64,000 bases of DNA from an uncultured Chloroflexia bacterium (GCA_963831745.1 CAWHRD010000008.1:73816-137815); one strand, 5' to 3'. Shown: positions 5,683-53,437, counted from the stretch's first letter. Notes: a model not told the origin generated them from the letters alone. Translations and numbers: made by a program.

Positions 5683-8600
5683 CTAGTCGCGACGGGGCGG
5701 CAGGTCCGCCCCGCCCGGATCCTCGAGCGAACGGATCCGCGCCTCGAGCGCGCGGGTCCGTTCCTCGCTTCCGGAGGCTCGCGCCGCCTCTACCCCGAGC
5801 CGAAGGGCATCGGCGGCTGTGGACGGCTCGCCGAGCTCGAGGAACCTCCGGGCTGCGTCCTCGGCGCGCTCGATCGCCCCGACGTGGTCGCCGCGCCGGA
5901 GCCGCTCGCGGGCGATGGTGAGGGTGACGTCGGCGGTGGTGGTCGGGTCGTCCAGCTCGGCCGCCAGCCGGAGGGCGTCGTCGGCCGACGCGAGCGCCCC
6001 GTCCAGCTCTCCGGCGGCGACGAGCGCCTCGGCCATGTTCGCGGTGGCGATCATCCGGCCGGACGCGTGGCCGACACGCTCGAACTCGGCGATCGCCCGC
6101 CGGTCGGCCTCGAGGGCGAGCCCAGGCTGCCCGAGCGCGAGCCGGACCACGCCGAGGTCGATGAGCGTGCCCCCGATCTCCTCGACCCCTCCGGTCCGCT
6201 CGGCGAGCCGGAGCGCGCCCTCGAGGATGGTCGCGGCCTCCTCCGGCCGTCCCCTCAGCCACTCGGCGCTACCGGTCGTCCGCAACGCCACCACGATGCC
6301 GCGCACGTCGTCGAACCGTCGCAGGATGGCCTCGGCCGTGCGAGCGTTTCGCAGGGCTGCGTCCTGGCTCTCCGGGGCGCGACGCTGGTGCTCGGCCGCG
6401 GCGAGCTCGAGGATGAGGCGGCCCGTCGTCCGGTCCGCGGTCTCCGCCAGCGTGGCGGTGGCGCCGGATTCGGCGAGGCCGGTTTCGGTCACGCCGATGC
6501 CCGCGAGCGCGAGGCCGGCCTCGGCCGCCCGGGCCGCCTCCGCGAACCGGCCGGCGAACAGCAGGGTCGACGCTCGCTCGAGGTGGATCTCTCGCCGATC
6601 GGCCTCGGGCGGCAGCTCGCGCTCGGCCTCGTCGAGGAGCCCGAGCGCTTCCGCGTACGACCCCTGGCGCCGTCGGACGGTGGCCAGCCCTCGCCAGGCC
6701 CGGAGGTCGTTGGCCGAGGTCCGGACCTCGGCGTAGAGGACCGCCGCCTGCTCGTAGTCGCCGCGCAGGTCGTGGAGGTCGCCGAGCGAGAGCAGGATCT
6801 CGGGGAGCTGCTCGAATGCATCCGGCGTCGTCCGGGCGATCTCGACGGCCCGCGCGAAGCCGAGGATCGCCTCGTCGTTGGCGAAGAGGCCGCGGGCCTT
6901 TGCCGCCGACCGGACGAGGGCGACGATGGCCCGGGCTCCCGCGTGCGCCAGGTAGAGGTGCCGCGCGAGGAGGTCGATCGCGTCATCCCCCGAGCCGTAC
7001 AGGGCCTCGACGGCATCCGCGGTCCGAAGGTGGAGCTCCCGGCGCTGGCGCCGCAGGAGCCGCCCGTAGGCGACGTCCTGGACGAGCGCGTGGTGGAAGG
7101 CCAGGACCTCGCCCGCCTCCTCCTGCGGGCGATCGAGGAAGCCGCCCGCGACGAGCTCCACGATCCTCTCGTCGAGCGACTCCGGCTCGTCCGCGATGGC
7201 GCGCAGCAGCGGCCGCCGGATCCACCGGCCGATGATCGATGCCTCCTGCAGGAGGTGAGCGGTGCCGGGCGACAGCCGATCGATCCGCGCGCCGAGGATC
7301 TCCTCGATCGTCTCGGGGACCGCGTCGATCTCCCAGTCCCGGGCGAGGCGCCACCCACCGGCGTCAGCTGCCAGGGTGCCCGCCTCGCGGAGGGCACGCA
7401 CCGACTCGGTCACGAAGTAGGGGTTGCCGCCGGTCCGGTCGGCGAGAGCGCGCGCCAGGAGGTCCGGCGGCTCCCCGCCGAGGAGCCTGCGCACCAGGCC
7501 CTCCACGTCCGCCAACGGCAGCGGGGCCAGGGCGAGGTCGAGGCGTCGCGATCCCCCCGCCACGCCGCGAGCGATCACGGAGGCGGCGATCTCGACGCCT
7601 TCCGGGCGGGTGGTCAGGCAGAGCAGGAGCGGTGATCTCCCGGCCCGGCCGGCCACGTCACGGAGCAGATCCAGCGAGGCCGCATCGATCCACTGGACGT
7701 CCTCGACCAGCAGGGCGATCGACCGGCCGCGGCCCTGGCGCAGGAGCCAGTCACAGAACGCGTCGTGCAGAGCACGCTTCAACGCCTCCGGCTCCAGGCG
7801 CGCTGCCGCGTCGGTCGCGTCGTCGGAGCCGCCGGGAGCCGCAGGCACGCCGGCGAGCCGCGCGAGGTACGGAAGGATGCTCGCCCCCTCGCCGGCCAGT
7901 GACGCGGCGAGCGCCGCGCCCACCCGCCCCGGCGGGTCGTCGGGGTCGATCCCCGCCTCGGCGCGGACGAGGCCCGCCCACGGGTGGTAGGGAAGCGTCG
8001 CCCCGTATGACAGGCAGCGCGTCGAGAGGACCCGCAACGGGCCCGCCTTCAACCGTCGGCGAAACGCATCCAGGAGCGTCGTCTTCCCGGCTCCCGGCTC
8101 GCCCGAAACGACGGCCACCACGCCCGTCGGTGAGCCGAGCCGGACCACGAGCCCTTTCAGTGCCCGGAGCTCGGCGTCCCGCCCGACGAGCTCGGGTGGC
8201 CGGGCACCTGCGACGGTCGGGATGCCGGCCGCCCTGCCGAGCAGGCGCCACGCCGGCACCGGCGTGTCCCTGCCCTTGACCGCGAGGGGCGCGATGGGCT
8301 CGAAGACGAAGCGGTCCCGGGCAAGCGCGACGGTGGCCTCGCCGACGTAGGTCTCGCCGGGCGGCGCATGCGACTCGAGGCGCTGCGCCAGGATCACCGC
8401 GTCGCCGAGGACGCCGTAGTCCACCCGCGCCTCGCTGCCGATGATCCGGGCGATCCCGTGGCCCGAGCTGACCCCGATGTGGAGCCCGAGGTCACGGGCC
8501 GGCGACGGGAGCTCGTGGCGCACTCGGCCCAGCTCCTGGTGCATCTCCATCGCGGTGAGGAGCGCCCGTTCGGCGTCGTCCTCGTGCGCGGTCGGAGCCC

Positions 8601-35820: not shown

Positions 35821-38028
35821 ATGACAGCTCTACGGCGTGGGCGCGCGGCTGCGCGGACGCTGCTGGCCCTCGTGGCGGTCGCGGCGCTGACGGTGCCGCT
35901 CGTTCCCTCCAGCCTCGCCGCGCCGTCGGGGACGGTGAGCGGCGCCCTGGCGTTGCCGGAGGGCCAGGCGTTGACCGCCAACGCCGTCGCCGTGGTCACG
36001 ATCTTCGACCAGGGAGCGGGGGCGTCCGAGCCGCTCATCGTCGGCCAGCAGCGCGGGCCGGCGACCGCCGCCGGCAGCATCCCCTTCGCCGTGCGCTATG
36101 ACCCGGCGCGGATCAACCCGCAGCGGCCGTACGTCCTGTACGCCGCGATCGTCGACGGGGACGCGGTCCTCCTGAGCACGACCCCGGTCCCCGTCATCAC
36201 CGGGGGCCCGGAATCCGGCCTGACCGTTCCCATGGTGCTGCGACCGAATGGCCCGGCGACGCTGAGCGTCACGGTGGTGAAGTTGGACACGACCGGCCTG
36301 AGCCCGACCGCGGTCGTCCAGGCGGGCGTGGTCAAGGTCGGGAGCGGGCGCATCGCCAGCCGCGATCTCTCGGTCACCTCGGGCCAGGTGCCGGTGGCGC
36401 TGGAGATCCCCTACGACCCCGCCCTCGTCGACCCGACGGCCCAGTACGTGATGAAGGCGGCCATCGTCGACGGCTCGTCCGTGTGGGAGAGCCTCGTTGC
36501 GGTCCCGGTCGTGCCGGGATCGACCGAGCCCATCACGGTCGAGGTGACATCCCTGCCGGTGGGGCTCCCCGTCATCGAGCCCAGCCCCGCGCCCTCCGGC
36601 AGTCCGGTCGCCTCGGCGGCCCCGACGGCCGCTCCCACGGCTGTGCCGACCCCGAAACCAACGGCTGCGCCGACCCCGGCCTCGACGCCCACGCCGAAGC
36701 CGACCGCGGCCCCGACGCCGACGCCCGCGCCGACGGCCACCGCGGCCCCGACGCCGACGCCCGCGCCGACGGCCACCGCGGCCCCGACGGCCACGCCGAA
36801 GCCGACGGCGGCCCCGACGCCGACGCCCGCGCCGACGGCCACCGCGGCCCCGACGGCCACGCCGACCCCGACCGCCACGCCAACCCCTGCGCCGACCGCC
36901 ACGGAGTCCGCCAGCGCTTCCCCGACGCCGAGCCTGACCCCGAGCCCGACCTCGGGCACCGTCGAGGGCACGCTCGTGTACCGCGAGCCGGCCAAGCTCT
37001 CGGGTGGCGCGCGGGCCGTCGTCGCGCTCCTCGACGAGGGCAACCGCTCGGCGGTCTCCGTCCTGGCGAGCCAGACGATCACCACGCCGGGCCAGCAGCC
37101 GGTCGCCTTCTCGCTGACCTTCGCGACGGCCGACATCGACCCGAGCCGCGCCTACACGATCCGTGCCGCGATCGTCGACGGCGAGAATGCCTGGATCTCC
37201 GCGGAGGGCGTTCCGGTCATCACGAATGGAGCCCCGACGAGCGGCGTCGTCGTCCCCTTGACGTACCGCCCGGACCTCCTCCTCGGAGAGGTGACCGGCA
37301 CGCTTTCCGGCATCGATGGGGCGCTGGGGGACGGGGCATCGTCCGTGACGATGGTGGTCGACCCTGCCACGGGTATCGTCCTGGGGTTCGACGCGCGCCC
37401 CCAGGCGGGAGCGACGTCGCCGATCGCGTTCTCGGTCCCCTTCAACGTTGCCGACGTCGACCCTGAAGCTGCTTACGTCGTGACCAGCGAGGTGACCGAC
37501 GGCGACCGCACGTGGGAGACCACGACGCCGCCGCGGGTGATCACGGGCGGAAACCCGTTCGCCGGGGTGGAGGTGTCGCTGGCCGCGGTCCCCGTCCCGA
37601 CACCGGTGCCGACACCCACGCCGTCGCCGGCCCCCTCGCCGTCGCCGGCCCCGACCCCGGGAGAGGGCGACGAGGGAGGCCCGCCGTGGCTCCTCCTGCT
37701 CGCGCTCGCGGCGCTGGTGGCCGCGGGCATCGCAGCCCTTCTCTACGCTCGCCGGGCGCCGACCCCACCGGTCGACCCGGTTGCCGTGGCATCGGCCGAG
37801 GCCGTGACGCCGGGGACACCGGATGTGGCCGGAACGGCCGCCGAGCCCGCCGGGGAGACGACGACCGGCACATCTCCGACGGAGCCCGTGACGGAGCCGG
37901 GGCTTGCGGCGTCGGAGTCGGTCGAGTCGGCCACCACGGCGGCAGAGTCGGTCGAGCCGACCGAGCCGGGGCTTGCGGCGGCGGAGTCGGTCGACCCCGG
38001 CGCGGCCGCGCCCACGGACGAGGCCTGA
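35821..38028 (+). CDS. cell-surface protein with four YbaY-like repeats, Pro/Thr/Ala linker and C-terminal membrane anchor
   Basis: Signal RTLLALVAVAALTVPLVPSSLAAP. Repeats follow the pattern SGTV..ALP....V.V.L.D......P..F...YD...I.....Y.L.A.IVDG......T..PVIT.G. C-terminal helix PPWLLLLALAALVAAGIAALLYA. Confidence 0.75.
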   Translation: MTALRRGRAAARTLLALVAVAALTVPLVPSSLAAPSGTVSGALALPEGQALTANAVAVVTIFDQGAGASEPLIVGQQRGPATAAGSIPFAVRYDPARINPQRPYVLYAAIVDGDAVLLSTTPVPVITGGPESGLTVPMVLRPNGPATLSVTVVKLDTTGLSPTAVVQAGVVKVGSGRIASRDLSVTSGQVPVALEIPYDPALVDPTAQYVMKAAIVDGSSVWESLVAVPVVPGSTEPITVEVTSLPVGLPVIEPSPAPSGSPVASAAPTAAPTAVPTPKPTAAPTPASTPTPKPTAAPTPTPAPTATAAPTPTPAPTATAAPTATPKPTAAPTPTPAPTATAAPTATPTPTATPTPAPTATESASASPTPSLTPSPTSGTVEGTLVYREPAKLSGGARAVVALLDEGNRSAVSVLASQTITTPGQQPVAFSLTFATADIDPSRAYTIRAAIVDGENAWISAEGVPVITNGAPTSGVVVPLTYRPDLLLGEVTGTLSGIDGALGDGASSVTMVVDPATGIVLGFDARPQAGATSPIAFSVPFNVADVDPEAAYVVTSEVTDGDRTWETTTPPRVITGGNPFAGVEVSLAAVPVPTPVPTPTPSPAPSPSPAPTPGEGDEGGPPWLLLLALAALVAAGIAALLYARRAPTPPVDPVAVASAEAVTPGTPDVAGTAAEPAGETTTGTSPTEPVTEPGLAASESVESATTAAESVEPTEPGLAAAESVDPGAAAPTDEA
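36709..36870. repeat. 36-bp tandem repeats inside the Pro/Thr/Ala linker
   Basis: GCCCCGACGCCGACGCCCGCGCCGACGGCCACCGCG is identical at 36709-36744 and 36745-36780, and occurs again at 36811-36846, with related 30-bp units between. Confidence 0.85.
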
Positions 38029-38848: not shown

Positions 38849-39930
38849 GCGTCGCCTCCCGCGCGAGCCGCCGCGTCGGGCTCTGGGCCGCCCGGCTCGG
38901 CTTCGTCCGGCTCCGCGATCAGCTCCAGGAAGCGCTCCTCCAGCGTCCCGCCCGTCGTGCGCAGCTCGGCGAGCAGGAGGCCGCGCCCGGCGCACCAGGC
39001 CGCCAGGGCGGCGATCGTCGCGGGATCGGGCGTGCGCCCGGCAAGCCGGTGCCGTCCGCCCGACCCGTCCGCCTCGATGTCGCCGCCGAGGACGGCTCCC
39101 AGCGCGACGAGGTCTGCGGCATCGACGTGGGCGCCGCTCCCGTCCGCCATCGCCAGGCGGAAGCGGAGCGCAAGCCCGGCACCGGCCACGAGCTCGGCGG
39201 GGGTCCCGGCCGCGAGGACCCGTCCACGGTCGATGACGACGACGTGGTCGGCCAGGCGCTCGACGTCGGCCAGCTCGTGGGTCGTCAGGAGAACCGTCCG
39301 GCCGGCCGCGCGCAGGTCGGCGATGAGCGCGCGCACGGCCCCCTTCGCGGCCGGGTCCATGCCGGCGGTCGGCTCGTCGAGCACCAACAGCTCCGGACGT
39401 CCGACGAGCGCGAGGGCCAGCGCGAGCCGCTGCTTCTCCCCGCCCGACAGGAGCTTGTAGCGCCGGTCGGCGGCCCGGTCGAGACCGAGGAGGTCGAGCA
39501 GGGCGTCGGGGTCGGCCGGGTTCGCGAAGAGGCGGGCGTGGAGGCGGACCAGCTCCCGCGGCCGCCCCTGCGGCGCGATGCCGCCCTGCTGGAGCATCAC
39601 CCCGACGCGGGGCCGCAGGGCCGCGCCGTCGCGCTGCGGGTCGAGCCCGAGCACCCGGATCTTACCGGCGTCGGGACGCCGGTAGCCCTCGAGGATCTCG
39701 ACGGTCGTCGTCTTGCCGGCTCCGTTCGGCCCGAGCAGCGCCACGAGCTGCCCGCGGGCCACGTCCAGGTCGAGGCCGTCGAGGACGGTCAGCTCGCCGT
39801 AGCGTTTGCGGAGGCCGCGGACGGTGATCGCCGCGGTTCCGTCGGCCGCGGCTCTGTCGGCCGCGGTTCCGTCGGCCGCGGTCGCGTCGCCCTGGCCGGC
39901 GGGGCGCGGGACGGCCCCGGCGGCCGTCAC
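38845..39930 (-). CDS. ABC transporter ATP-binding protein (DrrA-like)
   Basis: Walker A GPNGAGKTTT, signature LSGGEKQRLALA, Walker B LLVLDEPT. GTG 39930 forms a GTGA overlap with the thioredoxin-like gene's stop. Confidence 0.85.
   Translation of the reverse strand: MTAAGAVPRPAGQGDATAADGTAADRAAADGTAAITVRGLRKRYGELTVLDGLDLDVARGQLVALLGPNGAGKTTTVEILEGYRRPDAGKIRVLGLDPQRDGAALRPRVGVMLQQGGIAPQGRPRELVRLHARLFANPADPDALLDLLGLDRAADRRYKLLSGGEKQRLALALALVGRPELLVLDEPTAGMDPAAKGAVRALIADLRAAGRTVLLTTHELADVERLADHVVVIDRGRVLAAGTPAELVAGAGLALRFRLAMADGSGAHVDAADLVALGAVLGGDIEADGSGGRHRLAGRTPDPATIAALAAWCAGRGLLLAELRTTGGTLEERFLELIAEPDEAEPGGPEPDAAARAGGDA
39831..39890. repeat. 15-bp tandem repeat x4 in the 5' end of the ABC ATPase gene
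   Basis: CCGCGGTTCCGTCGG / CCGCGGCTCTGTCGG / CCGCGGTTCCGTCGG / CCGCGGTCGCGTCGC on the + strand. Confidence 0.8.
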
Positions 39931-40496
39931 GGCAGGATCGAGGCGAGGAGCCGGTCCAGCTCGGCGGCGTCGCGCACCTGCCCGATCTGCACGTCGCGGA
40001 TGACGCCCTCCGCGTCGACGAAGAACGTCTGGGGCGGCGCCAGGACCTTCCAGGTCGGGCCGATCGCGCGCTCCGGGTCTGTCACCGTCTGCCACGTGGC
40101 GGCCTGTTCCTCCACGAAAGCCCGGGCCGGCTCGGGGTCGTCCTTGTAGAGCACCCCGACGACCTCGAGACCGTCGGCGGCATGGCGGGCGGCCGCGTCC
40201 TCGAGGATGGGGAACTCATCGCGGCACGGCCCGCACCAGCTGGCCCAGAAGTTGACGAGCACGGGCTTGCCCCGAAGCGCGGCGAGGTCGAAGGCGGCAC
40301 CGTCGAGCGTCGTCCCGACGAGCGTCGGGGCCGGTGTCCCGATGAGCGGCGACCCGATGATGATGGTGCTCGCGCCGGGGCTGGCGGAGGTGGGCGCGCC
40401 GCCACAGGCCGTGAGGACGAGGGCCAGGGCGGCCAGCAGCGGAAGGAGGCGCCGGGCGCCGGCTCGGGGGGCGGTGGGAGTCATGGAGGCCGACAT
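39927..40496 (-). CDS. TlpA/ResA-like thiol:disulfide oxidoreductase lipoprotein
   Basis: Lipobox LVLTACGG. Thioredoxin motif LVNFWASWCGPCRDEFP. Confidence 0.85.
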   Translation of the reverse strand: MSASMTPTAPRAGARRLLPLLAALALVLTACGGAPTSASPGASTIIIGSPLIGTPAPTLVGTTLDGAAFDLAALRGKPVLVNFWASWCGPCRDEFPILEDAAARHAADGLEVVGVLYKDDPEPARAFVEEQAATWQTVTDPERAIGPTWKVLAPPQTFFVDAEGVIRDVQIGQVRDAAELDRLLASILP

Positions 40497-40552: not shown

Positions 40553-40857
40553 CCTACTTCACCGTGAGCGTGCCGGTCATGTTCGGGTGGACCGTGCAGA
40601 CGAAGCCGTAGGTCCCGGCGGGGAGCGCCGGCACGTCGTAGGTCCGGGTGTCGACGCCGCTGAAGATCTCGCCCTGCCAGACCTCGCGCCCGGTGGGCGA
40701 ACCCTCGTGGATCGCGACGTTGTGGGGGATCCCGGCGTCGTTGTTGGTGAACACGATCTTGAAGGGCGTGTTCGCCGGCGCTTCCAGGGTCGCCGTGTCG
40801 TACGCGATCCCCTGGGCGCTCAGCGTGAGGGTCGCCCCGGCACCCGGCGCCTGGCTG
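40553..40857. repeat. ~305-bp near-identical direct repeat, copy A (cupredoxin-coding)
   Basis: Aligned by eye to 44295-44599. Only two substitutions were seen (at 40763 and 40845 in copy A), and both are synonymous. Confidence 0.85.
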
Positions 40858-41756
40858 CCGCCCGGCGCGGCGCTGCCGCCCGGCGCGGCGCTGCCGGAGG
40901 GGGCGGGGGCCGTCCCGCCCGACGCGGCCGGCGCCTGGGACGCCGTCCCGCCCGACGGGGCTCCGCCGGCGCCTCCGGACGCGGTCTCGGCGCGGGGCGG
41001 GATCACCCCGCCGGCGATGAGCAGCGAGCCCACGAACAGGACGAGGAAGGTGATGAGCGTTCCCGTCGGGAAGCGCGGCGCGGGGATGTTCTCCAGGTGG
41101 CCCGTGGCGTCGGCCTTCTCGACCTCCCGGTACTCCTTGCGGGCGTCGTTGAGCCAGCCGAGGAGACCGATGACCGTCATCAGGATCCCGGCCACGAAGA
41201 TGACGGGGTCGATGACCAGCCCGAGGAGCAGCGCAGCGGAGGCGATCGCCGCGAGGAGCGGCCGGAACGACGGGCCGGGGATGTGGACCCCCGGCGGCGG
41301 TCCCTCGCCGACGACCGCCGGCAGCGCCGTGGGCGGCTCAAGGGCGTCGTACTCGCGGTTGGCCTCGCGGCCCCAGTAGAGCAGCGACCCGGCCATCGCC
41401 AGGACGCCGACCGCGAGGGCCACCACGCCGAACGGCTCGACGACGACGGTCGTACCGGTGCCGCCCGCGCCCGGCTCGATCTTGATGAAGAGCGTCGAGA
41501 GGACGAGGGAGAAGGCGCCGGCCGCCGCCAGGAACGGGGCCAGGCTGGGCCCCGGCATGTGGATCCCCTCGGGAACCGGAGCGGCCGGCAGGGGTCGCGA
41601 CACCAGAGGCCCGGCGGCGGCGTAGCGCCGGACCAGCCAGACGAGATAGAGGCCGACGGCGGCGAGCACCGCGAGCGGGATCAGGAGGATGAGCGCGTTC
41701 CAGTCGGGCGAGACCAGCGAGCCGACGATCTCGAGGATCTTGTCCCAGAGCGACAT
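40554..41756 (-). CDS. polytopic membrane protein with C-terminal amicyanin-like cupredoxin domain
   Basis: N-terminal helices with a duplicated motif (GIHMPGPSLAPFLAAAG / GVHIPGPSFRPLLAAIA), then a Gly/Ala/Pro linker. Type-1 Cu ligands IPHNVAIH ... FVCTVHPNM. Confidence 0.75.
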   Translation of the reverse strand: MSLWDKILEIVGSLVSPDWNALILLIPLAVLAAVGLYLVWLVRRYAAAGPLVSRPLPAAPVPEGIHMPGPSLAPFLAAAGAFSLVLSTLFIKIEPGAGGTGTTVVVEPFGVVALAVGVLAMAGSLLYWGREANREYDALEPPTALPAVVGEGPPPGVHIPGPSFRPLLAAIASAALLLGLVIDPVIFVAGILMTVIGLLGWLNDARKEYREVEKADATGHLENIPAPRFPTGTLITFLVLFVGSLLIAGGVIPPRAETASGGAGGAPSGGTASQAPAASGGTAPAPSGSAAPGGSAAPGGSQAPGAGATLTLSAQGIAYDTATLEAPANTPFKIVFTNNDAGIPHNVAIHEGSPTGREVWQGEIFSGVDTRTYDVPALPAGTYGFVCTVHPNMTGTLTVK

Positions 41757-41973: not shown

Positions 41974-42615
41974 CTACAGCAGGTAGAGCGTCGAGAAGAG
42001 GACGATCCAGACGACGTCCACGAAGTGCCAGTACAGGGACGTCGCCTCGACCATGTCATGGTGCCGCGCCGAGAACTGGCCCGCGAGGCCGCGGTAGAGG
42101 ACCACCGACAGCATGATCGCACCGCCGGCGACGTGCGCGCCGTGGAAGCCGGTCAGCGTGTAGAAGGTGCTCCCGAAGGCCGTGTCGGTGATCCCGAAGC
42201 CGAGCTGGGTGTAGTCCCAGACCTGGCCGGTGAGGAAGATGACGCCCAGGACGAGGGTGACCCCGGTGGCCCGCAGGAAGGCCGTTCGATCGCCGCGACG
42301 GATCGCCCACACGCCGAGCTGCATGGTGACCGAGCTCAGGACGAGGATCGCCGTCAGCGTGCCGGCGACGGCGAGATGCTCCGTCGTATGGAGGTTGAAC
42401 GCCTCGTACTCCTGCTCGTTGACCAGGGGCGGCCAGTGCGGCGAGGTGAGGCGGACGTTGAAGTAGGCCGCGAACAGCCCGGCGAAGAACATCACCTCGG
42501 AGGCGATGAACAGGATCATCCCCAGGATCGGGTTGCTGATCCCCCGCTGGGCGTGGGCGTGCCACTCGCCGATCCCCGTGTCGTGGACCGCGACGGGCGG
42601 GGTGGTCGTGGCCAT
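41974..42615 (-). CDS. ctaE: cytochrome c oxidase subunit III
   Basis: MATTTPP start at 42615. ILGMILFIASEVMFFAGLFAAYF..FYTLTGFHGAHVAGG..SLYWHFVDVVWIVLF. Only the last 213 aa of track ORF 41974..44232 are real. Confidence 0.9.
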   Translation of the reverse strand: MATTTPPVAVHDTGIGEWHAHAQRGISNPILGMILFIASEVMFFAGLFAAYFNVRLTSPHWPPLVNEQEYEAFNLHTTEHLAVAGTLTAILVLSSVTMQLGVWAIRRGDRTAFLRATGVTLVLGVIFLTGQVWDYTQLGFGITDTAFGSTFYTLTGFHGAHVAGGAIMLSVVLYRGLAGQFSARHHDMVEATSLYWHFVDVVWIVLFSTLYLL

Positions 42616-42617
42616 CG

Positions 42618-44285
42618 TCAGTGCCCCGCCGTGATCTGCGGCGCGTCCGCCACGGCCGCCGCGTGCGCCAAGGCCGCCACGGCCTGGCGCTGGTCGAAGA
42701 GCGGGCGCTCGGAGCGGATCGGCGGCAGGTGGTCGAAGTTCCAGGCCGGCGGCGGCGACGAGGTCGCCCACTCCAGCGTGCTGCCCTCCCACGGGTTGTC
42801 GCCCGCGGGCTGTCCGCCGCGCAACGAGACGAAGATGTTCCACAGGAAGGGCAGCATCCCGACGGCGATCGTGAAGCCGCCGATCGTCGCGAGCAGGTTC
42901 AGGTCGTTCCACCCCGCGGTCGCACTGTAGTCGGCGATCCGGCGGGCCATCCCGGACGTGCCGAGGAGGTGCATCGGGAAGAACGTCAGGTTCATGCCGA
43001 TGAAGATCAGCACGAAGTGGATCTTGCCCAGCGTCTCGTTGAGCATCCGCCCGAACATCTTCGGGAACCAGTAGTAGATCCCGGCGAAGACGCCCATGAT
43101 CGAGCCGCCGAAGAGCACGTAGTGGATGTGGGCGACGATGAAGTAGGTCGCGTGGACGTGGTAGTCCACGGGCACCGAGGCGAGGAAGGCGCCGTTGATC
43201 CCGCCGATGAGGAACATCGTCAGGAAGCCGACCGCGAAGAGCATCGCGGTCGAGAAGGAGAGCTTGCCGCGGTACATCGTCGCGGTCCAGTTGAACATCT
43301 TCACCCCGGTGGGGACCGCGATGAGGAACGTCATGAAGCTGAAGAACGGCAGGTAGACCGAGCCGGTCGTGAACATGTGGTGGGCCCAGACCGAGAACCC
43401 GAGGGCGCCGATCGCGGCGGTGGCGAAGACGAACGCCTTGTAGCCGAAGAGCGGCTTCCGGCTGAACGTCGGGAGGACCTCGCTGACGATCCCCATGGCC
43501 GGCAGGATCATGATGTAGACCGCCGGGTGGCTGTAGAACCAGAAGACGTTCTGCCAGAGGATGGCGTTGCCGCCCTCCAGCGCCGTGTTGAAGAAGCTCC
43601 CGCCCAGGTTGCGGTCGATGTAGAGCATCATCAGCGCCGCGGTCAGGACCGGCGTCCCCATCAGCACCAGCACGCTGGTGACGAGGATCGTCCAGACGAA
43701 GATCGGCATGCGGAAGAGGGTCATCCCCGGCGCCCGCATCTTGAAGATCGTGACCAGGAAGTTGACCGCTCCGAGGATGGAGCTCGTGCCCACCAGGAGC
43801 AGGGCGATGATCCACAGGTCGGTGCCCACGCCGGGGGCGTACTTCTCCTGCGCCAGCGGGCTGTAGCTGGTCCAGCCGTTGTCGGCGGCGCCGCCGAGTG
43901 GGAACCCCAGCATCGCGATCGCGGCCGAGAGCGGCAGCAGCCAGAACGACAGCGCGTTGATGCGCGGGAACGCCATGTCCGGCGCCCCGATCATGAGCGG
44001 CGTGAGGTAGTTCCCGAAGCCCGCCAGGAACGGGATGACGACCCAGAAGATCATCACCGAGGCGTGCATCGTGAACATCTGGTTGTAGGTGGCCTCGTCC
44101 ATCACCTGGAGGCCCGGCTGGGCCAGCTCGGTGCGAACGGCGAGGGCGAGGGCTCCGGCGATGAGGAAGAGCAGGAGCGAGTTGAAGAAGTACATGATCC
44201 CGATCTTCTTGTGATCGGTCGTCGTCAGCCACTCGTAGAGCCCCGAGCGGTAGGTCGCCGCGGGGCGGAGCGCGGTGGTCGCCAT
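42618..44285 (-). CDS. ctaD: cytochrome c oxidase subunit I
   Basis: TTDHKKIGIMYF, WFYSHPAVYIMILPAMGIVSE, VWAHHMFTTG, HYVLFGGSIMG. Confidence 0.95.
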   Translation of the reverse strand: MATTALRPAATYRSGLYEWLTTTDHKKIGIMYFFNSLLLFLIAGALALAVRTELAQPGLQVMDEATYNQMFTMHASVMIFWVVIPFLAGFGNYLTPLMIGAPDMAFPRINALSFWLLPLSAAIAMLGFPLGGAADNGWTSYSPLAQEKYAPGVGTDLWIIALLLVGTSSILGAVNFLVTIFKMRAPGMTLFRMPIFVWTILVTSVLVLMGTPVLTAALMMLYIDRNLGGSFFNTALEGGNAILWQNVFWFYSHPAVYIMILPAMGIVSEVLPTFSRKPLFGYKAFVFATAAIGALGFSVWAHHMFTTGSVYLPFFSFMTFLIAVPTGVKMFNWTATMYRGKLSFSTAMLFAVGFLTMFLIGGINGAFLASVPVDYHVHATYFIVAHIHYVLFGGSIMGVFAGIYYWFPKMFGRMLNETLGKIHFVLIFIGMNLTFFPMHLLGTSGMARRIADYSATAGWNDLNLLATIGGFTIAVGMLPFLWNIFVSLRGGQPAGDNPWEGSTLEWATSSPPPAWNFDHLPPIRSERPLFDQRQAVAALAHAAAVADAPQITAGH

Positions 44286-44294
44286 CGGGGCTCT

Positions 44295-44599
44295 CCTACT
44301 TCACCGTGAGCGTGCCGGTCATGTTCGGGTGGACCGTGCAGACGAAGCCGTAGGTCCCGGCGGGGAGCGCCGGCACGTCGTAGGTCCGGGTGTCGACGCC
44401 GCTGAAGATCTCGCCCTGCCAGACCTCGCGCCCGGTGGGCGAACCCTCGTGGATCGCGACGTTGTGGGGGATCCCGGCGTCGTTGTTGGTGAACACGATC
44501 TTGAACGGCGTGTTCGCCGGCGCTTCCAGGGTCGCCGTGTCGTACGCGATCCCCTGGGCGCTCAGCGTGAGGGTCGCCCCGGCACCGGGCGCCTGGCTG
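44295..44599. repeat. ~305-bp near-identical direct repeat, copy B
   Basis: See copy A at 40553-40857. The two copies are offset by 3742 bp. Confidence 0.85.
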
Positions 44600-45504
44600 G
44601 CACCCGGCGCGGCGCTGCCGCCCGGCGCGGCGCTGGCGGAGGGGGCGGCGCTGCCGGAGGGGGCGGGCGACGGCGTCGGCGGAGGCGCCAGGGACTCGGC
44701 GAGCCAGGCGTTGAAGGCGTCCCGGCTCTGCACCACGACCTCGAACTCCATCGCCTGGTGGAGCAGCCCGCAGAACTGGGTGCACTGGCCGCGGTACGTC
44801 CCCTCGCGATCGGCGAGGAACTGGATCACCTGGTCCTTGCGGGGGGTGATGTCACGCTGGTAGAGGAAGGCCGGAACGTAGAACGAGTGGATCACGTCGT
44901 TGGAGTGCATCTGCAGCTCGACGGTCTCGCCCACCGGGACGTGCATCTGGGGGGGCGTCCAGTTGGTGCGGTCGCCGCCGGGCGGCGGGATGCCGATGAC
45001 CGTGACGCACTTGCCCTTGTTGGCGGGCGCCCCGCAGTCCTCCCAGCGGACGTCCTGCGGCGCGTAGACGAACTGCCACTGCCACTGGTAGGCGACCACG
45101 CCGATCCGGACCGGCGGGTTCTCCTTGCGGGCGTCGATCGTGTTCAGCGTCTGCCACGAGACGACGAACAGGGCGAGGACGATCATGATCGGGATCGCCG
45201 TCCAGATGATCTCGAGCTTGTTGCTGCCGTGGATCTGGGGCGGCAGCTCGTCGTCGCCCTTGCGGCGGCGATAGCGCAGCACGGCGAAGAGGATCAGCCC
45301 CTCGACGAGGAAGAAGACCCCGATCCCGATCAGGAAGACGATGGTGTAGAGGTTGCGGACGGCCTGCCCCTGCACCGTCGCGGCGTCCGGCGGGAGTGCC
45401 GTCCGGGGATCGAAGTCCGTGCAGCCCGTCACGAGGAGGGCGGACGCAGCGAGCAGGAGAACGAGCACCGCCCGGCGTAGCGGTCTCCCCTGGGTGAACC
45501 TCAT
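44296..45504 (-). CDS. ctaC: cytochrome c oxidase subunit II fused to a C-terminal amicyanin-like cupredoxin domain
   Basis: ATG 45504 after GGGAGG. Lipobox LLVTGC and two helices. CuA site HSFYVP..CTQFCGLLHQAM. Pro/Ala/Ser linker, then a cupredoxin identical to that of the 40554..41756 product. Confidence 0.9.
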   Translation of the reverse strand: MRFTQGRPLRRAVLVLLLAASALLVTGCTDFDPRTALPPDAATVQGQAVRNLYTIVFLIGIGVFFLVEGLILFAVLRYRRRKGDDELPPQIHGSNKLEIIWTAIPIMIVLALFVVSWQTLNTIDARKENPPVRIGVVAYQWQWQFVYAPQDVRWEDCGAPANKGKCVTVIGIPPPGGDRTNWTPPQMHVPVGETVELQMHSNDVIHSFYVPAFLYQRDITPRKDQVIQFLADREGTYRGQCTQFCGLLHQAMEFEVVVQSRDAFNAWLAESLAPPPTPSPAPSGSAAPSASAAPGGSAAPGASQAPGAGATLTLSAQGIAYDTATLEAPANTPFKIVFTNNDAGIPHNVAIHEGSPTGREVWQGEIFSGVDTRTYDVPALPAGTYGFVCTVHPNMTGTLTVK

Positions 45505-45617: not shown

Positions 45618-46808
45618 GTGCGGAGATGCGCATACGTGCCATGCGTTGCTGAGCACGCGACAGCCGGGCGGCCGAAGACGCGCGAGAATGCGCGCGTGAC
45701 CGACCGCCCGAGGCTGCGCCGCCTCGCCTCCGCACCCTCGCTCCGCGCTCGGCGCGTGCGCCCGGTCGCGGGCCGCGCGCTCCGGGCCGGCGATCGCGAG
45801 GCGACCCGGCCCGCCGCCCGTCCTGCGCCCGCCGCACGGCTGCTGGCGGCGCTCCCCGTGGTGGCGCTCCTGGCGTTCGTCGGGGTGCCCGCGGCCCTGG
45901 CCCACGGGTCGGAGGTGCCGCCGCCGCCCGACCTGAACGCGTTCCTGTTCGGCTGGTCGTTCTATCCGCAGGTCGTGATCCCGCTCCTCGCGGCGGCCGC
46001 CGCGTACCTGTGGGCGGTCCGGCGGGTCAACGCGGCCCACCCGGCCAACCCCGTCCCGATCGACCGACCCGTCTTCTTCCTGGTCGGGCTGGCGTGCATC
46101 GGGGTTGCGCTCCTGTCGGGGATCGAGCGCTACGACACCGAGCTATTCGCCGTCCACATGGTCCAGCACCTGCTCCTCGTCTTCGGGGCGGCGCCGGCGA
46201 TCGTGCTGGCCGCGCCGATCACGCTGCTGCTGCGCGTCGCGACGCCCGACGTGCGCAGCCGCTGGATCCTGCCGGTGCTCCGCTCGCGGGTCGTCAAGGT
46301 GATCGCCCACCCGCTCGTCGCCTGGCTCCTCTTCACCTTCATCATGTGGGGCAGCCACGTCTCGCCCCTGTTCGACGCGGCGCTCGAGGACCCGCTGGTC
46401 CACGACCTGGAGCACGGGCTCTACCTCGCGAGCGCCCTGCTGTTCTGGATGCCCGTGATCGGGCGCGACCCCAGCCCGTATCGCCTCCCGTACCCGGTCC
46501 GGGTCTTCTACCTGTTCCTGCAGATGCCCCTCAACTCGCTCCTGGGGGTGGCGATCCTGTTCTCCGGGCAGGTCCTCTATCCGCACTACGCCACGACGGG
46601 CCGGCCGTGGCCGCCGTCGCCGCTGGAGGACCAGCAGCTCGCCGGGGCGCTGATGTGGGGCATCGGCGACGCGGGCTTCATCGTCGCGATCCTGCTCGTC
46701 ATCGCCGCGTGGATGCGCGATGAGGAGGCGACGACGCGGCGGCGCGAGGCGGCCGAGGACGAAGTGGCCGCGAGGCGGGCGGCCCGCGAGGGGACCGGGA
46801 CGGCCTGA
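45618..46808 (+). CDS. ctaG: cytochrome c oxidase assembly factor CtaG (Bacillus/caa3 type)
   Basis: FLFGWSFYPQVV, HMVQHLLLVFGAAPAIVLAAP, WGSHVSPLFDAALEDPLVHDLEH, LFWMPVIG. Start uncertain (GTG 45696 is possible). Confidence 0.8.
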   Translation: MRRCAYVPCVAEHATAGRPKTRENARVTDRPRLRRLASAPSLRARRVRPVAGRALRAGDREATRPAARPAPAARLLAALPVVALLAFVGVPAALAHGSEVPPPPDLNAFLFGWSFYPQVVIPLLAAAAAYLWAVRRVNAAHPANPVPIDRPVFFLVGLACIGVALLSGIERYDTELFAVHMVQHLLLVFGAAPAIVLAAPITLLLRVATPDVRSRWILPVLRSRVVKVIAHPLVAWLLFTFIMWGSHVSPLFDAALEDPLVHDLEHGLYLASALLFWMPVIGRDPSPYRLPYPVRVFYLFLQMPLNSLLGVAILFSGQVLYPHYATTGRPWPPSPLEDQQLAGALMWGIGDAGFIVAILLVIAAWMRDEEATTRRREAAEDEVAARRAAREGTGTA

Positions 46809-52858: not shown

Positions 52859-52888
52859 GCCGGTTCGCGCCGGGGCTAGACTCCCGCC

Positions 52889-53437
52889 GTGCCAACGCTC
52901 CCCGGTCGACCGCAGGCGCTCGCGCTCATGCTCCTGGGCCTCCTGTCCGCCCCGCTCGCCGCCTGCGAGGGATCGGCGGTGCCCGCGACCCCGGCGATCA
53001 CGCCCGGCACCTCGGCGGCGCCGCGCCAGGTCAACGTCATCCTGAAGGACTACGCCTTCGTGCCGGGGATCGTGGACATCGTCCCGGGGGAGACGATCAC
53101 CCTCAACGTGGTGAACGGTGGCCTCGACGTCCACGAGCTCGTCCTGGGGCCCGCGGCGGTCCAGCAGGCGTGGGAGGCGGCCGAGGAGCCCGCCGCCAAT
53201 CCCCCGCCGGGCCCGACACCCGACGTCTCAGTGTCGCCCGCCCTCGCGGGCCTGCGCGTGGTCGTCGGCTCCGGCGCGACCGAGACCGTCACGTACACCG
53301 TGCCCGCGGAGGTCGGGGAGCAGCTCCTGCTCGGCTGCCACATCTCCGATCACTGGGAGCGCGCGATGGCCGGCGCGGTGCGCCTGGTCGGGCCCGGGGG
53401 CGTGCCCCTGCCGACCCCGGGCGCCGGCCGCTCCTGA
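52889..53437 (+). CDS. cupredoxin-like lipoprotein
   Basis: GTG start. Lipobox LSAPLAACEG. Cupredoxin pattern INVILKDYAFVPG..GETITLNVVNGGLDVHELV..LLLGCHISDHWERAM (candidate His/Cys/His/Met ligands). Confidence 0.65.
   Translation: MPTLPGRPQALALMLLGLLSAPLAACEGSAVPATPAITPGTSAAPRQVNVILKDYAFVPGIVDIVPGETITLNVVNGGLDVHELVLGPAAVQQAWEAAEEPAANPPPGPTPDVSVSPALAGLRVVVGSGATETVTYTVPAEVGEQLLLGCHISDHWERAMAGAVRLVGPGGVPLPTPGAGRS

Follow-up and report, generated by a model that had tools for sequence, protein, structure and literature searches.

A type-1 copper module on two subunits of the aa3 oxidase of a Limnocylindria bacterium: gene conversion among its copies and a probable role in a tethered electron-transfer chain

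Single-membrane bacteria tether their respiratory electron carriers, as in caa3 oxidases, in Bacillus with its membrane-anchored and lipoprotein cytochromes c, and in the dihaem QcrC of actinobacteria. In the caa3 oxidases of Thermus thermophilus and Bacillus (PDB 2yev), the carrier is a haem c domain fused to the C-terminus of subunit II, and the donor to CuA is thereby tethered; the actinobacterial bcc-aa3 supercomplexes (dihaem QcrC, CtaC and CtaF; PDB 6hwh, 8hcr and 7q21) use no free soluble carrier. Here we describe the operon that encodes the sole haem-copper oxidase of a soil bacterium of the Limnocylindria (Chloroflexota), an enzyme of the aa3 type (A family). The operon lies in a 64,000-nucleotide stretch of DNA (hereafter the window; positions 73816-137815 of contig C8 of genome G000, which comprises 3.86 Mb in 10 contigs with 73% G+C). 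Its subunit II gene, ctaC, encodes a C-terminal cupredoxin, and a near-identical copy of this module ends a second protein of the operon. Limnocylindria are abundant in soils and lakes, and we know of no cultured representative.

Anchored type-1 copper proteins are the second class of systems with which the locus can be compared. Three reports describe sulfocyanin (SoxE of the Sulfolobus SoxM supercomplex), halocyanin, auracyanin and AcoP as membrane- or lipid-anchored proteins of this type that bind a haem-copper oxidase or connect it with a complex that oxidises quinol (PMC10654088; PMC4059628; PMC10873879). As described there, they are separate polypeptides, whereas the module found here is covalently fused to three respiratory subunits; a further copy, on a lipoprotein, has the same design as these carriers.

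Pfam placed COX2_TM (PF02790) at residues 39-117 of CtaC, COX2 (PF00116) at residues 185-254 and Cupredoxin_1 at residues 312-401 (E 1e-17). The lipobox reads LLVTGC, the score against TIGR02866 was 170 bits (cut-off 147.7), and the CuA ligands H206, C241, C245, H249 and M252 are invariant across 26 CtaC homologues, down to 51% identity. With both the transmembrane (TM) hairpin and the CuA ligands in place, we assign CtaC as an A-family haem-copper oxidase subunit II. The C-terminal domain scored above the cut-offs of PF13473 (64.5 bits) and PF00127 (Copper-bind; 26.6 bits), and its ligands H347, C389, H392 and M395 are invariant in the same 26 homologues; these features identify it as a type-1 (blue) copper cupredoxin, which is predicted to bind copper. 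In the AlphaFold2 (AF2) model the core has predicted local distance difference test (pLDDT) values of 80-93 and the all-beta cupredoxin values of 86-94, while the 34 residues 275-308 of the Pro/Ala/Ser linker between them fall below 50. A preliminary description made from the sequence of the window had named the lipobox, the two helices, the CuA site, the linker and the blue-copper domain, and had made its reading depend on conservation of the cupredoxin ligands in homologues; all of this was borne out.

CtaC differs from a caa3-type subunit II in its carrier, which is type-1 copper in place of haem c, and in the presence of a second copy on a subunit-IV-like protein. We found no CXXCH motif and no cytochrome c Pfam match in CtaC, which thus lacks the haem c domain of the caa3 type, and an open reading frame (ORF) and Pfam scan of the oxidase operon found no cytochrome c gene, in agreement with the preliminary description. 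Foldseek matched CtaC best with subunit II chains from the bcc-aa3 supercomplexes of mycobacteria and from the caa3 oxidase of Thermus (E 1e-17), and the Thermus chain is one of those closest in structure to the CtaC core. The likeness to the actinobacterial system goes further: the system described here likewise seems to use no free soluble carrier, CtaC, CtaD and CtaE score best on actinobacterial NCBIfam models, a putative PF12270 CtaF-type subunit is present, the top fold matches of CtaC are mycobacterial, and the cytochrome c part of the complex III protein described below is weakly similar to QcrC. The scores on aa3_CtaC_Actin, aa3_CtaD_Actin and aa3_CtaE_Actin nevertheless all lie below their cut-offs (210 vs 250, 711 vs 880 and 155 vs 190 bits). 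The closest sequence match of the module in the PDB was amicyanin (1id2, E 6e-6), and similarity to auracyanin was marginal (E ~0.01). Amicyanin of Paracoccus (PDB 1id2 and 1aac) has the same short C-x2-H-x2-M loop, CTPHPFM against CTVHPNM here. Because the module scored only 31.2 bits on the amicyanin equivalog TIGR02657 (cut-off 110.2) and yet has this amicyanin-type loop, we call it amicyanin-like, not an amicyanin. Amicyanin is also soluble, whereas the module is fused to respiratory-chain subunits, and we saw no link to methylamine dehydrogenase. As a separate observation, the periplasmic domain of CtaC contains an insertion of ~35 residues with two cysteines (RWEDCGAPANKGKCVTV...GGDRTNWTPP; residues ~148-183, window 44950-45070); closer homologues (at least ~70% identity) have it and the more distant homologues lack it, and it could be a disulfide-bonded loop near the CuA domain.

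The same cupredoxin, recognised by Pfam, forms the C-terminus of a 400-aa protein of the operon, as the preliminary description had stated. Within residues 1-250 of this protein six helices are predicted, and a module of the form HxPGPS ... W-x-x-EA/DAR-x-EY occurs twice. PF12270 (Cyt_c_ox_IV) scored 22 bits on it, below the cut-off of 26.9, and matched 32 of 33 family members at E <= 0.01, with a best E of 1.8e-11. A Foldseek search with the AF2 model of the membrane part gave no significant match (best E 0.075), mycobacterial CtaF chains standing at ranks 4 and 12, each with E > 0.1. Since the fold search was not significant, it is the profile matches that carry the assignment to subunit IV, and with moderate confidence we regard the protein as CtaF-like, with a tandem-duplicated subunit-IV-like membrane part.

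Exact alignment of window positions 40553-40857 and 44295-44599 (305 nt) gave two mismatches, both in synonymous Pro codons (CCC/CCG at 40764; CCG/CCC at 40845), the same two synonymous differences that the preliminary description had counted by eye. Positions 40553-40852 and 44295-44594 are 99% identical, in direct orientation and with a spacing of 3742 nt. Near-identity extends to 40906 and 44648, giving 354 nt with 5 mismatches (98.6%), and at the other end reaches one base beyond the TAG stop. Identity of this degree over 354 nt is not due to chance. The repeats flank ctaD, ctaE, a 59-aa ORF and the membrane part of the CtaF-like protein, so that the bracketing of the oxidase core noted earlier is correct; recombination between direct repeats could in principle delete that core.

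Two further copies of the module lie elsewhere in the genome. The single class-I cytochrome c domain of the genome (one match each for PF13442 and PF00034) is at 68.4 kb on contig C8, 46 kb from the oxidase operon, in a 351-aa protein. Behind a TM anchor, this protein has a monohaem cytochrome c (CARCH); a Pro/Ala/Ser linker then leads to the third cupredoxin, which has all four type-1 Cu ligands. Its gene closes an operon that opens with a GltD-like FAD/FeS protein and continues with cytochrome b6, subunit IV and a Rieske protein, consecutive genes matching PF00033 (E 8.5e-44), PF00032 (E 6.9e-7) and PF00355 (Rieske; E 3.9e-7). Given the split b (b6 plus subunit IV) and the Rieske protein, we assign this complex, encoded outside the window, as a cytochrome b6-type Rieske/b complex. 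The fourth copy, located on contig C5 by tblastn, shows 96.7% protein identity and, over 348 nt, 88.8% DNA identity; it belongs to a stand-alone lipoprotein, which has a long linker. The genome also encodes multihaem cytochromes c, in ORFs with 10 and 8 CXXCH motifs. We therefore rejected the idea that the organism has no cytochrome c at all. Because the sole class-I cytochrome c domain is fused to the third cupredoxin in the bc operon, cytochrome c appears to be part of the chain and not replaced by it. The preliminary description had suggested that electrons enter the oxidase via tethered cupredoxins rather than cytochrome c; tethered entry is plausible, and the exclusion of cytochrome c does not stand.

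Several observations concern the surroundings and relatives of these copies. The GltD-like FAD/NAD(P) oxidoreductase (639 aa, several 4Fe-4S motifs; L084:5954-7873, G000 C8:63953-65872) is an unusual opening gene for a Rieske/b operon, and its ORF ends at 7873 of that locus, directly before the start of the b6 ORF at 7874. Directly downstream of the lipoprotein copy is a second lipoprotein cupredoxin (L083:8435-8896; G000 C5, minus strand) with 42% identity to the module and the motif CPVHPNM. A 665-aa Ser/Thr protein kinase in the representative library (P0279) combines a TM segment with an extracytoplasmic cupredoxin that shares 70% identity with the module, and it may monitor how reduced the cupredoxin pool is. 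Many other library proteins (P0241-P0246) have 2-4 tandem copies of related cupredoxins.

The nearest relatives of G000 are metagenome-assembled genomes (MAGs) labelled Chloroflexota / Candidatus Limnocylindrales, and all the relatives are MAGs. The pairing of CtaC::cupredoxin with CtaF-like::cupredoxin at the same ~3.7-kb spacing was found in 22 related loci. Among 151 Chloroflexota genomes, CtaC matches that reach through the cupredoxin were confined to the class of the window, and the closest CoxB relatives in other phyla end at about residue 270-320. Of 30 relatives in two families, 26 match the cytochrome c::cupredoxin protein over all or nearly all of its length, and in two more the match is split into two adjacent parts. 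The survey of relatives that the preliminary description had proposed thus gave a CtaC fusion across the class, together with, in most relatives, a cytochrome c fused to the cupredoxin. In the small-genome family f2 the bc operon lies within 4-5 kb of the cox operon; in the genus of the window both are on one contig, separated by 35-50 kb. In one relative (L026, 8001-9000) CtaC retains the Pro/Ala/Ser linker and has no cupredoxin (it ends ...PAAGIAPAVTAQ before the stop), and the CtaF-like cupredoxin is still there; this natural loss suggests that the two oxidase-borne modules are redundant. We found no description of a CoxB-cupredoxin or cytochrome c-cupredoxin fusion in the literature searched, whose coverage stops short of subscription journals.

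Comparison of the copies within and between genomes revealed concerted evolution. Over the last 273 nt the oxidase pair is 96.7-100% identical in 16 of 23 genomes, the best match in another genome typically being 85-94%. Within the pair, no more than one synonymous codon difference (0-1) was counted in 13 of 19 relatives, and between genomes the median is 17 synonymous and 21 non-synonymous differences of 91 codons. In a maximum-likelihood tree the copies pair by genome, with stems of 0.05-0.14 and tips near zero, and forcing all CtaC copies into one clade cost 639 log-likelihood units (approximately unbiased (AU) test, p 9e-126), which rejects orthologous CtaC and CtaF-like clades. The CtaC and CtaF-like copies of the deepest lineage (L031/L032) fall into separate orthologous groups. 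In genomes with near-identical pairs the tracts are 270-390 nt long, start at variable points in the linker and end no more than 10 nt from the last sense codon. The copies therefore cluster by genome despite an ancient duplication, and do so in discrete tracts with unrelated flanks and homogenised synonymous sites: the duplication is ancient, and it has been followed by ongoing gene conversion. The G+C content at third codon positions (GC3) is 0.96-0.99 in converted and unconverted parts alike and, being saturated, makes any signal of GC-biased gene conversion uninformative.

Homogenisation extends to the other two loci. We compared nucleotide identity among all four copies within G000 and five more genomes of the genus. 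All four copies are 98.9-100% identical in G007 and G015. The cytochrome c, CtaF-like and lipoprotein copies of G011 are 100% identical, its CtaC copy being at 87%. G006 has two sets, an oxidase pair at 100% and a cytochrome c/lipoprotein pair at 99.3%, with 82-83% between them. The oxidase pair and the lipoprotein copy agree at 99.3-100% in G004, where the cytochrome c copy stands at 72%, and G000 itself has an oxidase pair at 99.6%, a lipoprotein copy at 95-96% and a cytochrome c copy at 78-79%. Copies of the same kind are 72-89% identical between genomes. There are thus two sequence types of the module, and the direction of overwriting differs between lineages. RecA-type gene conversion repeatedly copies one module and part of its linker over other copies, between the two oxidase genes, which are separated by 3.7 kb; several genomes show conversion to or from the bc-complex gene, at a distance of 35-50 kb, and the lipoprotein gene, which is unlinked. 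Since overwriting occurs in either direction without gene loss, the modules appear to be functionally interchangeable among their four host proteins. The nearest precedent comes from the mtr operons of methanogens, where mtrA-1 and mtrA-2 have long undergone gene conversion at the level of a domain (PMC4632066); there, paralogous domains on two proteins of one membrane-complex operon, the products of an ancient duplication, are homogenised and the membrane parts stay distinct. The present case differs in involving up to four copies, including unlinked loci, a variable direction of overwriting and an electron-carrier domain.

The preliminary description had offered recent duplication or ongoing gene conversion as explanations of the near-identity, and only conversion, backed by the tree and the AU test, survived. 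Two differences in 305 nt would fit a very young duplicate in this genome, but the two-copy layout recurs with the same 3.7-kb spacing in 22 relatives, including deep lineages whose pairs are ~51-60% identical (ungapped comparison), and pairing by genome on long stems with near-zero tips, with the AU result, speaks the same way. We rejected recent duplication on the strength of this conserved architecture, the tree and the AU test, and give it almost no credence. A slightly larger, though still very small, chance belongs to an artefact of assembly or polishing (a collapsed or cross-polished repeat) or to purifying selection combined with extreme codon bias. All data are from MAGs, the GC3 of 0.96-0.99 narrows synonymous choice, and some long-read assemblies contain frameshift errors, such as that in L017 (12575-12872), where the CtaF-like cupredoxin reads in two frames, probably through assembly error and not as a pseudogene. 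Each copy nevertheless has unique flanks with a different gene and reading context, residual synonymous differences separate the copies, and other MAGs of the same record set (MFD) have diverged oxidase pairs (L002, 87%; L007, 81%; L016, 82%). Moreover, several independent short-read MAG contigs (L019-L025) break off around CtaC residue 272-323, at the start of the repeat, as expected for a real repeat. Nor can codon bias account for zero differences within genomes when the median between genomes is 17 synonymous codons. The artefact and codon-bias explanations were accordingly rejected as well.

We consider it likely that a chain of tethered cupredoxins, their copies homogenised by gene conversion, links the bc complex to the aa3 oxidase. 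Chloroflexota, and hence this bacterium, are assumed here to have a single-membrane (monoderm) envelope, and a single-membrane cell cannot retain soluble carriers, so that all carriers would have to be tethered. Two oxidase subunits, CtaC and the CtaF-like protein, each carry an extracytoplasmic amicyanin-like domain on a disordered leash of 35-55 residues. Electrons would pass from menaquinol through the Rieske/b6 complex to haem c and the complex's own cupredoxin, from there to the oxidase-tethered cupredoxins, via the lipoprotein cupredoxin and/or by direct contact, and finally through CuA and haem a to a3/CuB and O2. Conserved type-1 Cu ligands on a flexible tether make the fused domain a plausible point of electron entry to CuA. 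The cupredoxin would here stand in both for the second haem domain of QcrC and for the fused cytochrome c of caa3 oxidases. Compared with the bcc-aa3 supercomplexes, the complex III cytochrome is monohaem (one CXXCH) with a cupredoxin in place of the second haem domain of QcrC, b is split into b6 and subunit IV, and the oxidase subunits bear cupredoxins.

A stricter form of this proposal, which we hold only tentatively and think will more probably prove wrong, is an obligate bc-aa3 assembly in which electrons hop from haem c to CuA between identical leashed cupredoxins by homotypic self-exchange, a copper 'wire' that would replace both the second haem of QcrC and any free carrier. Mutual docking of the modules with one another and with CuA would then select for homogenisation at four loci. 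A different possibility is that the fused cupredoxins lie off the path from the bc complex to the oxidase, either as sites at which electrons enter from other donors (hydrogenase-linked or multihaem cytochromes, or metal oxidation as with rusticyanin or AcoP) or as modules for copper handling or CuA assembly. The multihaem cytochromes c of the genome, the TlpA/ResA-like protein and CtaG that flank the operon, and the relative whose CtaC has no such domain all agree with an off-path role. Against it stand the full, invariant H/C/H/M set of electron-transfer ligands, the fact that the cytochrome c of the bc complex bears the same module in fused form and that this copy and those of the oxidase are interchangeable, and the adjacency of the bc and cox operons in family f2; the known CuA chaperones PCuAC and Sco, moreover, have folds and motifs other than those of the module. 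On balance an off-path role seems unlikely.

Some points tell against the proposed chain from the bc complex to the oxidase. Copper binding, redox potential and electron transfer are all predicted from sequence, as is delivery to CuA by the fused domains rather than by the lipoprotein alone. The CtaC-borne cupredoxin seems dispensable, at least in L026, and the multihaem cytochromes c could feed the cupredoxins from other donors. The profile matches that suggest a CtaF-like protein are weak, and its fold search was not significant. Finally, the data come from MAGs, for which effects of assembly and polishing on repeat identity were excluded indirectly.

The aerobic chain of Limnocylindria appears to use one copper module on complex III, on two complex IV subunits and on a lipid anchor. 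If true, this would be a third solution, after caa3 and dihaem QcrC, to electron transfer between complexes III and IV without a periplasm, and part of the metal demand of the respiratory chain would move from iron to copper. For bacterial genome evolution as well as bioenergetics, concerted evolution at four loci is a clean natural experiment: it points to interchangeable modules and is a tractable case in which to ask whether gene conversion is maintained by selection on docking surfaces that the modules share. In practical terms, repeats of ~350 nt seem to interrupt short-read assemblies at this operon.

The operon and its neighbours are listed in Table 1. A whole-genome count gave one COX1 gene, the ctaD of this operon, and one cytochrome bd. 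The 59-aa ORF may encode a small oxidase subunit that resembles an N-terminal part of CtaF, and the ResA/TlpA-like lipoprotein is a candidate reductant in the assembly of copper-site cysteines.

Table 1. Positions in the window of the oxidase operon, its flanking genes and the repeat copies.
Feature	Position	Strand	Basis or remark
ctaC::cupredoxin, oxidase subunit II	44296-45504	minus	402 aa; Pfam and NCBIfam
ctaC residues 1-270: lipobox, two TM segments, CuA domain	44695-45504	minus	
ctaC residues ~271-310: Pro/Ala/Ser linker, disordered	44575-44694	minus	
ctaC residues 311-402: type-1 Cu cupredoxin	44299-44574; stop 44296-44298	minus	
ctaD, haem-copper oxidase subunit I	42618-44285	minus	PF00115 E 5.5e-165; TIGR02891 712.9 bits, above cut-off
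ctaE, oxidase subunit III	41974-42615	minus	PF00510 E 2.5e-41
59-aa ORF, two helices	41779-41958	minus	translation; weak PF12270 match, E 0.0098
ctaF-like::cupredoxin, 400 aa	40554-41756	minus	residues 1-250 six-helix; Pro/Ala/Ser/Gly linker; cupredoxin ~40557-40832
ResA/TlpA-like lipoprotein thiol-disulfide oxidoreductase, downstream of operon	39927-40496	minus	Redoxin/AhpC-TSA E 1e-23; DsbE/ResA subfamily matches
CtaG, caa3-type oxidase assembly factor, divergent from operon	45618-46808	plus	PF09678 E 7.9e-75; start codon uncertain
Repeat copy A: linker end, cupredoxin and stop, 354 nt	40553-40906		conversion tract
Repeat copy B: direct orientation, 3742 nt from copy A	44295-44648		conversion tract

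Two other proteins of the window were recorded. One is a putative lipoprotein of 185 aa with a LAAC lipobox and no Pfam match (52880-53437, plus strand). The other, of 735 aa (35821-38028, plus strand), has four YscW-like lipoprotein-chaperone repeats with long Pro/Thr/Ala runs between them and a C-terminal TM segment.

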